Made by a program: the position numbers and the translations under genes. From an uncultured Chlamydiae bacterium (lineage in GTDB: Bacteria; Chlamydiota; Chlamydiia; Chlamydiales; SM23-39), in assembly GCA_963828125.1 (NCBI GenBank), contig CAWHDP010000002.1, positions 256,539 through 320,538 on the forward strand: a DNA stretch of 64,000 nucleotides. The letters run 5' to 3'. Numbering within the stretch: the stretch's first letter is position 1; each line of letters starts with the position of its first letter. Below the pieces are notes generated by a model. It searched no databases. It was not told where the DNA came from and saw nothing but the letters and a program-made list of their open reading frames with translations. Of this stretch, positions 51,836 to 64,000 are shown piece by piece.

Positions 51836-52672
51836 TCAAGCGGGCTTTGATAGAGCTGCCGCTTTCTGAAACCAAAACGGGGCGTAGAGCTTATCCCGCG
51901 GCCATGTCTGGCAGCTCAATTCCCGATACTTTTCTTGCAGGAATTCATCCGTCGCCTCACGCCAATCCTCCACGATGACAACGGGGAGTCCTTCGTAGAG
52001 GGGGTTAAGGCGGCTGCTTTTGACAATCGGGTAGCACCCCATCAAAAGCGCCTCCCACGTCCGGTGGCAATCGGCGCCATTTCCCGGCGGACTGACTATA
52101 AAGACCGATTCAGAGAGATCTTTTACATATTCGGCAAAGGATTTTCGCTTGACAAAGGGGACGCCGATGGACTGAAAATGTCTTGTGCAATCGAGCCTGT
52201 TTGGCAACACCAAATAATTGAGATAACAAAAAATCGATCTCGTTTTTTTCAAAGGCATGTCGAATAAATCGGTATTCCCGTGTTCCCAACACTTGTTTGC
52301 AATCCCGATCGGGATCGGGATCAATTTTTCCGATGGGGCCCGGTCGATATTCTGCACAAACCAGGCAATGATTTTCGGATCATCGAGAAGAAAAGCGAAA
52401 GGACCTGGCATCGGGTGGTCGGCGCCGTTGCCATAGTTGGCGGTCACTAAAACGATCTCGCCTTGGATCCGAGGAAGGATTCTCTTTGCGAAGTCGTTCA
52501 GGCAATTGTAATCGACAAAAACGGCGTCGCCAGTCTTCACCTGTTCGGCGTTGAAGCGGACAGGGCCGCTCCCATAATCTCTATTGAGCATTTTCCAGTT
52601 GCAGAATGAGACCCAGGTGTATCCAGAGAGGTAGGGGAAGCTGGTTTCTCCTTGGAAAGAGAACGGGTTCAT
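51836..52672 (-). CDS. putative glycosyltransferase, exostosin (GT47)-like C-terminal motif
   Basis: FIVSPPGNGADCHRTWEALLMGCYPIV resembles the conserved exostosin-family block. Overlaps the next gene by 4 nt. Confidence 0.4.
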   Translation of the reverse strand: MNPFSFQGETSFPYLSGYTWVSFCNWKMLNRDYGSGPVRFNAEQVKTGDAVFVDYNCLNDFAKRILPRIQGEIVLVTANYGNGADHPMPGPFAFLLDDPKIIAWFVQNIDRAPSEKLIPIPIGIANKCWEHGNTDLFDMPLKKTRSIFCYLNYLVLPNRLDCTRHFQSIGVPFVKRKSFAEYVKDLSESVFIVSPPGNGADCHRTWEALLMGCYPIVKSSRLNPLYEGLPVVIVEDWREATDEFLQEKYRELSCQTWPRDKLYAPFWFQKAAALSKPA

Positions 52673-53640
52673 TTTTGCAAATCCTTTATTTTCGATAAGA
52701 TACTCTCTTTAGAGAGCGAGCTGACGCCGACGTTGGCGTCGCCATAGGCCCCGAGCCGGTAAGCCTCGTCCCGATCGATGATCCCTTTATCTGGCAGGAC
52801 GGCTGTATAATCCAGCCCCCTCATCTCGGCAAACAGGCGGTAATCCAGTGCGTGAAAGCCGGGTGGGAAAAGTTCGATGACGGCAGAGTCTCTGGGCAAA
52901 AATAGGCTGTGGCTCAGTCCGTTGCCATGGACGCCGATCAGCACATCGGTATTTCGGATGATTTGGAGCTGCTCTTGGAACGTGAGTTTTGCAAAATCGA
53001 CCGTTTGCAAAGAGACCGATTTTACACTTTGCAGCGAGGAGAAGATTTGTTTTTCCAGGGTTGGATGCAAGGTGCGGGGAGGAGGTCTTTGCACATAGGT
53101 TACGCGGAGAGTGGTTGTGGGGTGTTTTTGAGTCGCTGCATAGGTATGCACCCGATCGGCCAAACGGTCCAAAGAGTCCTTGGAAATAGAATGTCTGGCA
53201 AGCCCTAGCATTTTGTTGATTTTTTTACACTCCTTTAACAGGAATGTGGGGGTTCTATCTGATGTGAGGGCTTTTTCAAAACAAAGGATTGGGTCTGGAA
53301 AACTTTGCCGCAATTGGATCCATGTTTTGACTGCTGCCTTTGGAAATAGCGCTTGCAAGAGATGTTTATTGATGTCGTTAGGCCCTTGCCAGGGAACATC
53401 GTTAGAGAGGATAATGAACCGGACGTTTTCGGAATGGGAATCCCCATAGAAGGCCCAATGTCCTACTATATGTTCGAGAAGATGGAAAAAATGGGTGAGA
53501 AAATAACTCGTCCTTTTGGGCTCCAACAAAAAAAGGGTGCATCCGTCGATCTGCTGTGCTTTGTGGAGAGGCGGCTCAATGAGAAATTGAGATGACTGGG
53601 TGTCAAAATATAGTTTATCAAAGATGCGAAATGGGATCAT
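52669..53640 (-). CDS. glycosyltransferase family 61 (DUF563)-like protein
   Basis: VLIGVHGNGLSHSLFLPRDSAVIELFPPG matches the hallmark GT61/DUF563 block (HGAGLTN...EL.P). Confidence 0.6.
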   Translation of the reverse strand: MIPFRIFDKLYFDTQSSQFLIEPPLHKAQQIDGCTLFLLEPKRTSYFLTHFFHLLEHIVGHWAFYGDSHSENVRFIILSNDVPWQGPNDINKHLLQALFPKAAVKTWIQLRQSFPDPILCFEKALTSDRTPTFLLKECKKINKMLGLARHSISKDSLDRLADRVHTYAATQKHPTTTLRVTYVQRPPPRTLHPTLEKQIFSSLQSVKSVSLQTVDFAKLTFQEQLQIIRNTDVLIGVHGNGLSHSLFLPRDSAVIELFPPGFHALDYRLFAEMRGLDYTAVLPDKGIIDRDEAYRLGAYGDANVGVSSLSKESILSKIKDLQK

Positions 53641-53667
53641 AGCTTTGTCTGTTCACTGTGTTCTAAG

Positions 53668-61828: not shown

Positions 61829-62928
61829 GAGTATTGTTTTGGACCGATGGATTTTGGCCCCGTTTAGGTGGAATAGAGACTCAAGGATTTCGATTCATCG
61901 AAGGGATGCACAAGAGGGGCCATGAGTACATCGTAGTCGCTCAAAAAGACCACCCCTCTTGCAGCCATGAGACGCACTGCGGCGTCCCCATTTGGCGGTT
62001 TGATTTCAACGCCCTTGTTTCAAAGCGCGATCTCCCAATCATCCGTTCGATTCAAGCTTTTCTAGAACCGATGCTCAAAAGGTTTCGCCCCGACGTCATT
62101 CACCTCAATGCGGCCCTCGGCGGGAGCGCGTTCGCCTTTTTGCTCTTCATCCGGCTGTTTTCTGCCCCAATCATCCTAACCGCTCACGCCCCCAACCTCT
62201 ACGAGGGGAAAATCCCCCCAGTCATCGAAAAAATCGGAGCTTCCGTCGATCGGATCGGCTGCGTATCGGCCTGGGTCATGAGAGAAATCGAAACGCACCT
62301 TCCCCAGATGAAATCTAAATTGCGCCTCATATACAACGGCCTCCCCTTGCCCAAAGGGCCCCCAACGCCTCTCCCTTTTTCTCCTCCCACACTTCTTCTC
62401 TTTGGAAGACACTCTCCAGAAAAGGGGCTTGCCGTAGGGATCGACGCCTTTGCCCTCCTTAAAAAGCGGGGCTCGAACGCCCGCCTCATCATCGCAGGGG
62501 GAGGGCCAGATCTACCCGCATTGAAAAAATTAGCTGAAGAGCGCAATTTGCAAAGCTCGGCACGTTTTACAGGCGTCTTAAGCGATACGGAGGTTCTCTC
62601 CGCCTTCAACGCGGCGACCCTCGTGATCGTCCCCTCGCTCGTCGAATCTTTCGGCCTTGTGATTCTAGAATCGATGCAACACCAAAGGCCCGTTGTCGCC
62701 TCGCGCGTCGAGGGGATTCCCGAAGTTGTTCTCGATGGGGAAACGGGGATTTTAGTTCCCCCAAAAGATCCCGTTGCCTTGTGCGACGCCATTGAATCTC
62801 TCTTGAAGCAGCCTGAAAAAGCCGTTCAAATGGGAATATCAGGACGGGCTCGGGCGATTCTGAAATTTACGATCGATCAAAATTTGGATGGATACGAAGA
62901 GCTCTATGAAAATGTTATTTTGGGCTGA
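61825..62928 (+). CDS. GT4 (group 1) glycosyltransferase, paralog 2 (intact)
   Basis: Glycos_transf_1 C-terminal motifs (VESFGLVILESMQHQRPVVASRVEGIPEVV...GILV). 367 aa. ATGA overlap with paralog 1. Confidence 0.8.
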   Translation: MRVLFWTDGFWPRLGGIETQGFRFIEGMHKRGHEYIVVAQKDHPSCSHETHCGVPIWRFDFNALVSKRDLPIIRSIQAFLEPMLKRFRPDVIHLNAALGGSAFAFLLFIRLFSAPIILTAHAPNLYEGKIPPVIEKIGASVDRIGCVSAWVMREIETHLPQMKSKLRLIYNGLPLPKGPPTPLPFSPPTLLLFGRHSPEKGLAVGIDAFALLKKRGSNARLIIAGGGPDLPALKKLAEERNLQSSARFTGVLSDTEVLSAFNAATLVIVPSLVESFGLVILESMQHQRPVVASRVEGIPEVVLDGETGILVPPKDPVALCDAIESLLKQPEKAVQMGISGRARAILKFTIDQNLDGYEELYENVILG

Positions 62929-64000
62929 CGGATTTTGGCCGCGGCTAGGAGGAACCGAGACGCAAGGGATCCAATTTGTCGAAGGGATGCACAGGAGGGG
63001 TCATGAAGTGTATCGTACTTGCACAAAAAGACCATCCGAGCTGGAAAGAGGAGGATGAGTATCGAGGCATTCCGATTCAAAGATTCAACTTCAATGCGAT
63101 CCTTGAGACCCGCGACGTCAAGAAGATCGGTCCGATTAAAGAATACCTCGATTGGGCAGCCAACGTATTTCAACCGGACATTGTCTATTTGAACACCCTT
63201 TTTTGGGGGAGCGCCTTTGTCTTCCTCCTCTTTCGGAGACTCTTTCAGATCCCCGTCATCCTCACCATCCATGCCCCTTATTTTGAGGAGGGGATTCCCC
63301 CTCTCATGGAACAAATTTGCCGTGAGGCCGATTGGATCTGTTGCGGTTCGAAATGGGGATCCTCTGTAATGGAGAAGCGGCTCCCATCGATGCGCGAGCG
63401 GTTCAAGACGATTTACTATGGGATCTCATGGCCCAAAGAGGAGCCAGCCCCGCCCCCTTTTTCACCCCCAACCCTTTTACTTTTAGGGCGGCTTTCCGTC
63501 GAAAAAGGGTTTGACGTCGCGATTGAGGCTTTTTCCCTGCTGAAAAAAAGCGGTTCTCCAGCCCTGCTTCTAATCGTCGGCGACGGACCTTACCGCCCCG
63601 CTTTGGAAACCCTAGTCGCTGAACTCAATCTCACCCCATTTGTCCGATTTGCCGGAGCCGTTCTCAATGCCGACATCCCCTTGTTTCTCAATCGGGCGAG
63701 CTTTGTTGTCATCCCCTCCCACTTTGAGGCGTTTGGACTTGTTGCCGTCGAATCGATGCAGATGGGACGAGCGGTGATTGCCTCGAACGTCGGAGGACTA
63801 CCCGAAATTGTCTCCGATCCGGAAAGAGGGGTTCTTGTCCCCCCTCGGAACCCTGTAGCTCTATACAGAGCCATGGCCTCCTTTCTCGATCAGCCGCAAG
63901 AGATCGTCAATAGGGGCGTGCGCGCCCGGGAATGGATCAGGGAGAGATTTACTCTGACAGAGAATCTCGATCAATACGAGGCGCTCTTCGAGGAGGCTAT
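62906..64000 (+). pseudogene. GT4 (group 1) glycosyltransferase, paralog 3; frameshifted near 63008-63011 and truncated by the window end
   Basis: MKMLFWADGFWPRLGGTETQGIQFVEGMHRRGHE in frame 2 stops at about 63055. Frame 3 from 63012 reads IVLAQKDHPSWKEEDEYRGIPIQRF...FEAFGLVAVESMQMGRAVIASNVGGLPEIV and is open to the window end. I translated this by hand; it is absent from the ORF track because no stop falls inside the window. Confidence 0.7.

Follow-up and report, generated by a model that had tools for sequence, protein, structure and literature searches.

A kinase, nucleotidyltransferase and glycosyltransferase cassette found in many phyla, and a giant neighboring protein, in an uncultured Chlamydiales bacterium

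The DNA studied here is a stretch of 64,000 nucleotides (nt), hereafter the window, from contig CAWHDP010000002.1 of an uncultured bacterium of the order Chlamydiales, and we analyzed the region from position 51,836 to its end. This region is a composite of three parts: a core cassette, a pair of accessory transferase genes, and a gene for a giant protein with a PPDK_N domain. The core cassette encodes, in order, a PqqD-like protein of the RiPP recognition element type (RRE; RiPPs are peptides made by ribosomes and modified afterwards), an HprK/PEPCK-like P-loop kinase, three family 4 glycosyltransferases (GT4), a family 2 glycosyltransferase (GT2) and an NTP_transf_5 protein, the last two of which lie past the end of the window. 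By analogy with enzymes that modify peptides, we propose with moderate confidence that the cassette builds a phosphate-linked glycan on a peptide, and that the giant protein stands apart from this activity.

So far, studies of the trio of RRE, HprK-like kinase and nucleotidyltransferase have been confined to the lasso peptides of Bacillota and, from 2026, to linear polyphosphorylated peptides (LPPs). The cassette extends the same enzymatic logic to a wider, unnamed family that includes metagenome-assembled genomes (MAGs) of Chlamydiales and Coxiellaceae. Known members of these two groups are mostly intracellular. The findings are relevant to specialists in RiPPs and in glycobiology.

A cassette conserved among distant bacteria

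We found more than 960 homologues of the kinase, with identities of 40-67%. Five of their neighborhoods were inspected by hand, in a gammaproteobacterium, a second gammaproteobacterial MAG (1.58-Mb contig), a Simkaniaceae MAG, an Ardenticatenaceae MAG and an unassigned contig. All five contain a PqqD protein of about 140 amino acids, the kinase, GT4 and/or GT2, and an NTP_transf_5 protein. For a broader scan, one genome was taken per species, and open reading frames (ORFs) were scored with profiles built from seed loci. The resulting 80 loci span at least 15 phylum-level groups, among them Chlamydiota, Coxiellaceae and other Gammaproteobacteria, Cyanobacteria, Chloroflexota, Acidobacteriota, Nitrospirota, Actinomycetota, Patescibacteria, Abditibacteriota and Armatimonadota. 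(Compared loci and assemblies are designated below by L numbers, and homologous proteins by P numbers.)

GT2 is present in 77 of the 80 loci, the PqqD-type protein in 75 and NTP_transf_5 in 62. The kinase and these three components all lie within 8 kb of one another in 60 loci, and the PqqD gene is directly 5' of the kinase gene in 53. Many of the loci that lack a component are truncated by contig ends. GT4 was found in 24 loci and, among the closest relatives of the kinase, is typical of the loci from Chlamydiota and Gammaproteobacteria; elsewhere, two to four GT2 genes usually occur instead. Some components are also fused to each other, namely the kinase to GT2 (L023, L025 and L080), a PqqD domain to the kinase (P0044), and three RRE units to the kinase (P0302 and P0304).

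A reading made from the sequence alone had proposed that the genes from position 59269 onward form one translationally coupled unit that runs off the window, with chance juxtaposition as the alternative. The unit does continue: in L001, another assembly of the same organism, GT2 and NTP_transf_5 genes follow. The gap between the PqqD and kinase genes is 7 nt, the overlaps at 60727/60730 and 61825/61828 have the form ATGA, and the overlap between 62906 and 62928 is 23 nt, as had been noted; the genes thus form a tightly coupled operon. Because orthologues of the RRE, kinase, glycosyltransferase and nucleotidyltransferase genes are co-localized in most of the 80 loci and in many phyla, we conclude that the plus-strand genes from 59269 onward make up a true functional unit and did not come together by chance. 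The features of the region are as follows, with coordinates of the window unless L001 is named.

51836..52672, minus strand: accessory glycosyltransferase-like protein, 278 amino acids (RXYLT1_C marginal, Exostosin/GT47 weak)
52669..53640, minus strand: accessory GT61-like transferase, 323 amino acids (Glyco_transf_61, E 2.4e-12); overlaps the preceding gene by 4 nt
53641..53974, no strand: divergent intergenic region with a 17-bp inverted repeat and a promoter-like site
53975..59137, plus strand: giant PPDK_N/HEAT-like protein, 1720 amino acids; a neighbor, outside the cassette
59138..59268, no strand: spacer upstream of the cassette, with a promoter-like site and a 37-codon ORF
59269..59697, plus strand: PqqD-family RRE protein with a fused tail, 142 amino acids
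59593..59682, plus strand: tail motif within the RRE protein (Y109-x-x-P112-x-L114; Y117-T-D119; L123-LLL-D127-P-I-H130-E-V...G136-W-P138)
59705..60730, plus strand: HprK/PEPCK-like P-loop kinase, 341 amino acids (Walker A G176-KSGAGKST-T185)
60727..61828, plus strand: GT4 paralog 1, with an extra A at 61366; intact, with 366 amino acids, in L001-L003
61825..62928, plus strand: GT4 paralog 2, 367 amino acids, intact (Pfam GT4 domains)
62906..64000, plus strand, continuing about 16 nt beyond the end: GT4 paralog 3, with an extra A at 63006; intact, with 369 amino acids, in L001, L002 and L004
L001 12179-12865, beyond the window end: GT2, 228 amino acids
L001 12862-13998, beyond the window end: NTP_transf_5, 378 amino acids, followed by an orphan ORF and dnaG

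Upstream, the unit is bordered by two genes that Pfam identifies as encoding oligopeptide-binding proteins (opp), and downstream by the orphan ORF and dnaG. These borders leave no space for a cyclase, a protease, an exporter or a distinct precursor gene.

Profile searches support most of the family assignments made earlier. GT61, PPDK_N, PqqD and GT4 reach their Pfam cut-offs, RXYLT1_C does so marginally, and Exostosin and Hpr_kinase_C fall below. For the kinase, the label HprK-like stands by profile and fold, although no curated model is reached: its scores are 22.4 for Hpr_kinase_C (cut-off 33.3), 20.3 for hpr-ser (240), 21.1 for HprK_rel_A (200) and 46.3 for HprK_rel_B (200). All 53 kinase homologues likewise score below the NCBIfam cut-offs, with a best E value of about 3e-12. 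A profile of the kinase family, however, matches the P-loop region of the HprK/P structures 1jb1 and 1ko7 (E ~6e-5), and the predicted model (pLDDT 95.3) matches phosphoenolpyruvate (PEP) carboxykinases over both domains in Foldseek (E 2.6e-10). Residues G176, G179, G181, K182 and S183 of the Walker A motif are invariant. The protein thus has the catalytic domain of the HprK/PEPCK-like P-loop group.

The nucleotidyltransferase matches NTP_transf_5 (PF14907) with 116.9 bits (cut-off 31.2; E 1.5e-33). Its residues D128 and D130 are kept in 37 and 42, respectively, of 43 sequences, and further acidic and His positions are also kept. This D128-x-D130 motif appears, by sequence, to be equivalent to the catalytic D134 and D136 of PsmN, mutation of which abolishes hexose addition (PMC6993621). 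From the published description of PsmN (PMC6993621), we take it to be a member of PF14907.

Among the Cyanobacteria, loci L021, L029, L030, L034, L037, L049, L055 and L059 usually contain two divergent NTP_transf_5 paralogs, and several of them have the gene order PqqD, GT2, NTP_transf_5, kinase. In a gammaproteobacterial MAG (L007/L026, 14008-16272, minus strand), a gene for a PtsP-type enzyme I (GAF plus PEP-utilizers) is convergent on the end of the cassette. This is the sole other locus in which we saw a protein of the PEP-utilizer family next to the cassette, and the arrangement is probably a coincidence. A role in anti-phage defense, which was prompted by GT4-conflict matches, was rejected, since PADLOC finds nothing for any of the eight proteins.

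The RRE protein, its tail and the proposed product

The RRE protein matches PqqD (PF05402) with 48.0 bits (cut-off 23.4; E 1.6e-12), and its top Foldseek matches are the lasso B1 proteins TbiB1 and 6jx3, both of which were solved with leader peptides (for TbiB1, 5v1v, E 7.7e-6 and a target-normalized TM score of 0.90). By profile and by its winged-helix fold, it is therefore an RRE protein. All 61 of its homologues are below the curated cut-offs of the NCBIfam models.

These proteins consist of the PqqD domain, a hypervariable linker and a tail whose consensus is [F/Y]-x-x-P-x-L-x-K-[Y/F]-[T/S]-D-M-Q-x-L-L-L-L-D-P-I-H-[E/D]-V-x-x-x-G-W-P. Our alignments and the position frequencies computed from 265 distinct tails show that its conservation exceeds that of the RRE domain. 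In these 265 tails, the first motif begins with F (61%) or Y (37%), followed by P (98%) and L (76%), and D-8, D0, P1 and H3, numbered relative to DPIH, are essentially invariant. A full-library profile search found 598 RRE-tail clusters, defined at 50% identity, at E<=1e-30. Some of these proteins have two or three tandem RREs, including P0302 and P0304 (about 780-850 amino acids), P0303 (398 amino acids) and P0309 (276 amino acids).

The first six residues of the tail match [Y/W]xxPx[L/V/I/F/A], which is the motif by which lasso and LPP leaders bind the RRE. In crystal structures of these leaders with RREs, the residues after the Leu extend the antiparallel sheet of the RRE (PMC13381572). An AlphaFold2 model, based on an alignment of 61 sequences (mean pLDDT 85.5), predicts a confident RRE domain, a pLDDT of about 87 for residues 101-120, and a flexible DPIH..GWP end (pLDDT ~50). 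The model places a beta-strand at residues 114-117, directly after Y109-x-x-P112-x-L114. This predicted strand lies where the leaders of lasso peptides and LPPs are paired with the sheet of the RRE (PMC13381572), and that sheet is presumably its own partner as well.

The tail motif is present in 70 of the 80 loci, and every intact occurrence is joined to an RRE. The single candidate for a stand-alone tail peptide (L073, 54 amino acids) is a frameshifted RRE-tail gene in a long-read MAG. All-against-all BLAST clustering of small ORFs (20-129 amino acids) near the cassettes of the 80 loci yielded no conserved family, only frameshift fragments of RRE-tail genes, and no separate precursor gene was found either at this locus or as a conserved small ORF in the 80 loci. 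The 37-codon ORF (59140-59253), which fills the 131-nt spacer and begins 2 nt past the stop codon of the giant gene, was considered as a precursor. It has no Pfam match and no counterpart in the 80 loci, and other loci have just 50-130 nt upstream of the PqqD gene. We rejected it because it is not conserved and because other loci offer so little upstream space.

The gene combination had been described earlier as one that was not recognized. We found no paper that describes the cassette and no curated model that names it, and a search of the literature for the exact cassette surfaced lasso and LPP papers alone. However, the set of an RRE, an HprK-like kinase and an uncharacterized nucleotidyltransferase, sometimes with GT2, is already known from Bacillota lasso-peptide and LPP clusters (PMC6993621, PMC13381572, PMC7533575). 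The kinases PadeK, PsmK and LppK transfer one or more phosphates onto a Ser of the precursor peptide (PMC6993621, PMC8498205, PMC13381572), and the addition of one or two hexoses to the phosphate depends on PsmN (PMC6993621). LppN was inactive in a heterologous host (PMC13381572). Lasso clusters of Butyrivibrio contain a nucleotidyltransferase, an HPr kinase and GT2 (PMC7533575). These experimentally studied relatives agree with the earlier suggestion that a P-loop kinase and a peptide adaptor of the PqqD type act in a glycoconjugate pathway (PMC6993621, PMC13381572).

The paeninodin and pseudomycoidin clusters share with our cassette the trio of a PqqD-like B1 protein, an HprK-like kinase and a nucleotidyltransferase-fold enzyme (PMC6993621, PMC8498205), and the DxD motif is conserved in both. 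Their chemistry, Ser phosphorylation followed by addition of hexose to the phosphate, has been demonstrated. The glycan machinery of the cassette is much larger, with four to six transferases. In the window segment and L001, the locus contains none of the other lasso components, namely precursor A, the transglutaminase-like protease B2, the Asn-synthase-like cyclase C and exporter D.

LPP clusters (Popov et al. 2026, PMC13381572) resemble the cassette in having a discrete lasso-type RRE, an HprK-like kinase and an uncharacterized NTP transferase, in lacking a macrolactam cyclase, in their location amid glycosyltransferase and polysaccharide genes, and in the YxxP-type motif. They differ in several respects. 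LPP clusters encode an MsbA-like exporter, which is found in many of the related loci but not in this one (as scanned with L001 included), and an SpI-like (SipW-type) leader peptidase, whereas a Pfam analysis of every gene between the opp genes and dnaG found no peptidase. LPPs have a separate precursor with a YxxPxVLxHQxIxFETxxS leader, of which the cassette keeps the YxxPxL part only, fused to the RRE and followed by the invariant tail. Unlike in LPP clusters, GT2, and here also GT4, are core members. Finally, LPPs and paeninodin-type tailoring are reported to be restricted to Bacillota (PMC13381572), whereas the cassette occurs in Chlamydiota and many other phyla. The cassette shares the RRE, kinase and nucleotidyltransferase with lasso and LPP systems; what it has in addition are fixed partners of the glycosyltransferase type and a leader that is fused in cis and followed by an invariant tail.

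An HprK-like P-loop protein is likewise partnered by a member of the PqqD family in the HprK-related kinase A/B families of NCBIfam/TIGRFAM and in SynChlorMet ScmC/ScmD, whose cassettes are predicted to modify peptides. The HprK-related A/B and SynChlorMet models are the best named matches, yet the 53 kinase and 61 RRE homologues lie far below their cut-offs, and no curated model names this kinase/RRE family.

These likenesses allow the locus to be read as a reduced lasso- or LPP-type cluster whose precursor, and perhaps peptidase, is encoded elsewhere, and in which the RRE tail regulates access to the groove. By both profile and fold, the RRE is indeed closest to lasso B1 proteins, and the kinase and nucleotidyltransferase are a known tailoring pair. 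However, the interval from the opp genes to dnaG encodes no cyclase, B2 protease, SpI peptidase or precursor, the 80 loci have no conserved small ORF, and the universal cis fusion argues that the ligand of the groove is the tail itself. We judge such a reduced cluster to be highly improbable.

The pathway that we favor instead, in which a phosphate-linked glycan is built on a peptide, is modeled on PsmK/PsmN and LppK; what we observed directly are the gene content, conservation, fusions, folds and motifs described above. The RRE domain would hold its own [Y/F]xxPxL motif in the leader-binding groove and thereby present the tail (...Y-T/S-D...LLLLDPIHxV..GWP) to the enzymes. The kinase would use ATP to place one or more phosphates on a residue of the tail, or on a bound peptide, and the nucleotidyltransferase-fold enzyme would attach the first sugar through that phosphate. 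GT2 and GT4 enzymes would then lengthen the glycan, with a GT4 step that appears triplicated in this Chlamydiales MAG, and the divergently encoded GT61-like and RXYLT1-like transferases would probably add further sugars. The giant PPDK_N/HEAT protein would have a function of its own and would lie between the accessory transferases and the cassette by chance.

In a more specific version, which we put forward tentatively, the RRE-tail protein is a self-leadered scaffold whose invariant tail primes a phosphate-linked glycan, with no precursor, in more than a dozen phyla. If true, this would be protein-primed phosphoglycosylation, elaborated in Chlamydiales by GT61-like and RXYLT1-like enzymes. 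A loose parallel is the kinase, nucleotidyltransferase-fold, RXYLT1 and GT61 logic of the phospho-glycan on eukaryotic dystroglycan. Moreover, should the tail be the acceptor, one would have a nearly invariant substrate that is known beforehand, and the chemistry of the nucleotidyltransferase could be tested with three or four recombinant proteins.

Several observations weigh against a peptide-borne glycan. No Ser, Thr or Tyr is invariant in the tail (counted from DPIH, the best candidates are position -10, with Tyr in 78%, and position -9, with Thr/Ser in 77%), so the phosphate acceptor may lie outside it. In multi-RRE proteins, every RRE has its own [F/Y]xxPx[LVI] segment and the DPIH..GWP end is found on one unit only; for this reason, the cis segment could be a purely structural part of the RRE subfamily. 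The cassette has no conserved protease, and none of the largest recurrent neighbor families of the 80 loci is a peptidase. Exporters of the lipid or polysaccharide type are frequent in related loci: an ABC-transporter family occurs in 27 of the 80 (the example in L041 is MsbA-like, with ABC_membrane and ABC_tran), a Wzx-like flippase in L020, and Wzm/Wzt-type ABC-2 transporters in L018 and others. In addition, two of the GT4 genes are frameshifted in the window sequence.

A product that is not a peptide is therefore a serious rival, because of the lack of an invariant tail hydroxyl and of a conserved protease and the nature of the neighboring genes, which besides exporters include sugar epimerases (15 of the 80 loci) and sulfotransferases. 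Under this alternative, which we nonetheless think unlikely, the product of the cassette is a glycolipid or a unit of a polysaccharide, made from a sugar or lipid intermediate that is phosphorylated by the kinase, activated by the nucleotidyltransferase and lengthened by the transferases. For the RRE-tail protein, this would leave only the part of a structural or regulatory subunit, with its groove permanently filled by its own tail, in keeping with the presence of a cis segment on each RRE of the tandem proteins. Some members of the kinase family also match the small-molecule kinase FomB. Against it, no initiating phosphoglycosyl transferase is among the recurrent neighbor families, and peptides are the substrates of all characterized sets of RRE, HprK-like kinase and nucleotidyltransferase (PMC6993621, PMC13381572). 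In the AlphaFold2 model, the near-invariant DPIH..GWP end is undocked, and it looks as if it were presented to an enzyme. The exporters, furthermore, are not decisive, as polysaccharide loci surround the LPP and paeninodin clusters too (PMC13381572).

The giant protein and the accessory transferases

The sequence-only reading had centered the whole region on the giant protein, as one island in which a dikinase-like enzyme phosphorylates a glycan made by the surrounding glycosyltransferases. Part of its basis is sound. The PPDK_N ATP-grasp domain (residues 251-584) is well supported (80.5 bits, cut-off 27; E 1.7e-22), the closest solved relatives of the N-terminal part are Listeria rifampin phosphotransferase and PEP synthase (PDB 5hv6/5fbs and 8a8e), and the gene is physically flanked by transferase genes here. 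As had been noted, a PEP/pyruvate TIM barrel (PF02896) is lacking from the protein, in that Pfam detects none.

The proposed architecture of ATP-grasp, swivel His and HEAT repeats stands at both ends: the C-terminus has ten HEAT-like repeats of about 36 residues (approximately residues 1340-1715). The swivel domain (PF00391, PEP-utilizers) had no Pfam match, even at E<=10 on the isolated segment. Nonetheless, S653-H654, within 'NSHPVVNFS', does not vary among 30 homologues, and PEP synthase 8a8e is matched in the profile alignment over chain residues 227-464, past the ATP-grasp part. A phospho-histidine swivel-like segment around S653-H654 is thus plausible from the sequence. The middle of the protein is long and helical, with about 700 residues that have no match.

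Like rifampin phosphotransferase, glucan-water dikinase and PEP synthase, the giant protein thus has an N-terminal PPDK_N domain and then a His-containing segment, in its case with no TIM barrel. It differs from these enzymes in the unmatched helical sequence, in the HEAT-like repeats, in having no carbohydrate-binding modules and in a swivel domain that is invisible to Pfam. The family comprises 134 homologues of about 1,000-2,650 amino acids, and all of their source names are chlamydial (Chlamydiales, Parachlamydiaceae, Simkaniaceae and Chlamydiae). In two cases, two homologues are on one contig, and several genomes are multi-copy. We found no published description of this giant chlamydial family.

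The evidence against a dikinase-centered island comes from genomic context. The two neighborhoods of giant homologues that were examined (55% and ~33% identity) have no cassette, and instead contain oxidoreductase and type III secretion genes in one and shikimate-pathway genes in the other. Conversely, the 8 kb around the cassette contain no giant homologue in any of the seven other chlamydial-type loci, and the cassette occurs in many phyla, whereas the named members of the giant family are all chlamydial. A promoter-like site also lies in the 131-nt spacer between the giant gene and the cassette. In the Chlamydiae MAG L018, a GT61-like gene (47% identity) is directly divergent from the PqqD gene; therefore, the giant gene looks as if it had been inserted between the GT61-like gene and the cassette in the lineage studied here. 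We regard the single-island model as highly improbable, and conclude that the giant protein belongs to a separate family outside the cassette. For annotation, this means that giant chlamydial PPDK_N proteins are separated from this pathway.

Both of the giant-homologue neighborhoods (the contig of P0182, and L011 24130-25709) contain a gene for glycoside hydrolase family 77 (GH77; amylomaltase, MalQ-type) about 8 kb downstream, and one of them also has an RXYLT1_C-like gene beside GH77. This recurrence may reflect conserved chlamydial synteny, or may hint at a glucan-related role of the giant family.

The two minus-strand transferases, by contrast with the giant gene, have homologues that adjoin the cassette in other chlamydial-type MAGs, which supports the earlier proposal that they are part of the glycan region. 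The assignment of the 52669-53640 product as GT61-like is confirmed (Glyco_transf_61, 47.7 bits; cut-off 27). The product of 51836-52672 had been called exostosin-like; it scores 16 bits for Exostosin, below the cut-off of 33.4, and matches RXYLT1_C marginally (27.4 bits, cut-off 27). Homologues of this RXYLT1-like gene occur near the L018 cassette (30% identity) and within the cassette of L017 (62% identity; L017 9017-9841, minus strand), where the gene directly follows GT2. NTP_transf_5 was detected nowhere in the L017 locus, and the RXYLT1-like gene occupies its usual place. In the Simkaniaceae cassette, a GT90 gene lies upstream instead of GT61-like or RXYLT1-like genes. The GT61-like and RXYLT1-like genes are therefore accessory genes that recur beside the cassette in two other chlamydial-type MAGs, and such variable extra transferases at its edge fit diversification of a glycan.

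Frameshifts, spacers and bordering genes

All of the ORF coordinates reported earlier are correct, but of the three tandem GT4 paralogs that had been described, two are not intact and are frameshifted in the window. GT4 paralog 1 is split into 60727-61416 and 61436-61828 by its extra A (a run of A8 in place of A7), and paralog 3 has a stop after 50 codons. The same genes were compared in other assemblies of the organism, comprising one NCBI MAG, two Logan runs and two ENA metagenomes. At 61366, the frame is intact in three other assemblies (the NCBI MAG and both Logan assemblies); at 63006, it is intact in two of the same three and in one ENA assembly. Over the 12,177 bases aligned with L001 and L002, the window differs by two insertions of a single A and has no substitution. 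Because other assemblies read through and the sole differences are these two A indels, the breaks are probably assembly errors; the alternative is that they are very recent lesions. Two other overlapping ORF pairs in the window (7280-7828/7336-8130 and 28072-29001/28809-30200) look like split genes, and may also be indel artefacts of the homopolymer type.

The three GT4 paralogs are 51-55% identical among themselves, about the same as each is to single-copy orthologues. Comparison of their sequences therefore points to an old triplication. In other chlamydial-type loci, the number of GT4 copies ranges from one to three.

Both spacers have the lengths given previously (334 nt and 131 nt), but their more unusual descriptions did not hold, and we consider them ordinary. 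The 334-nt region, which had been called AT-rich and laden with palindromes, is 42% GC overall and AT-rich (31% GC) in its last 114 nt only. It contains one perfect 17-bp inverted repeat (53722-53738 and 53757-53773; GAGCCAATTTTATTTAG and CTAAATAAAATTGGCTC) with an 18-nt T-rich loop, which is unique in the window and could be an operator or a small hairpin. The 131-nt spacer, said to consist of mosaic repeat DNA, has weak 15-nt repeats alone, at 73-80% identity. Promoter-like sites are predicted at 53932-53961 in the 334-nt spacer and, preceding the cassette, at 59195-59223. We also considered whether either spacer holds a structured RNA, but an Rfam search at E<=1 gave a single sub-threshold match, which is located outside the spacers.

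The opp genes at the upstream border (47432-49000 and 48987-51767, both minus strand) are adjacent and encode SBP_bac_5 oligopeptide-binding proteins, one of which, with 926 amino acids, has an N-terminal extension of about 450 residues that lacks a Pfam match. An ABC ATPase-like ORF (46699-47445) adjoins the pair. A peptide importer therefore probably borders the cassette.

On the other side, the orphan ORF that follows the cassette (L001 14096-14530, 144 amino acids) shares a long, near-identical segment (…EVASRYGTVL.DRFGSCGAFALRTCGTVGKKSEKPEEDRASLSQIVALPQSI…) with a 344-amino-acid ORF at L001 16758-17792, on the opposite side of dnaG. Thus, a duplicated gene fragment flanks dnaG in L001.

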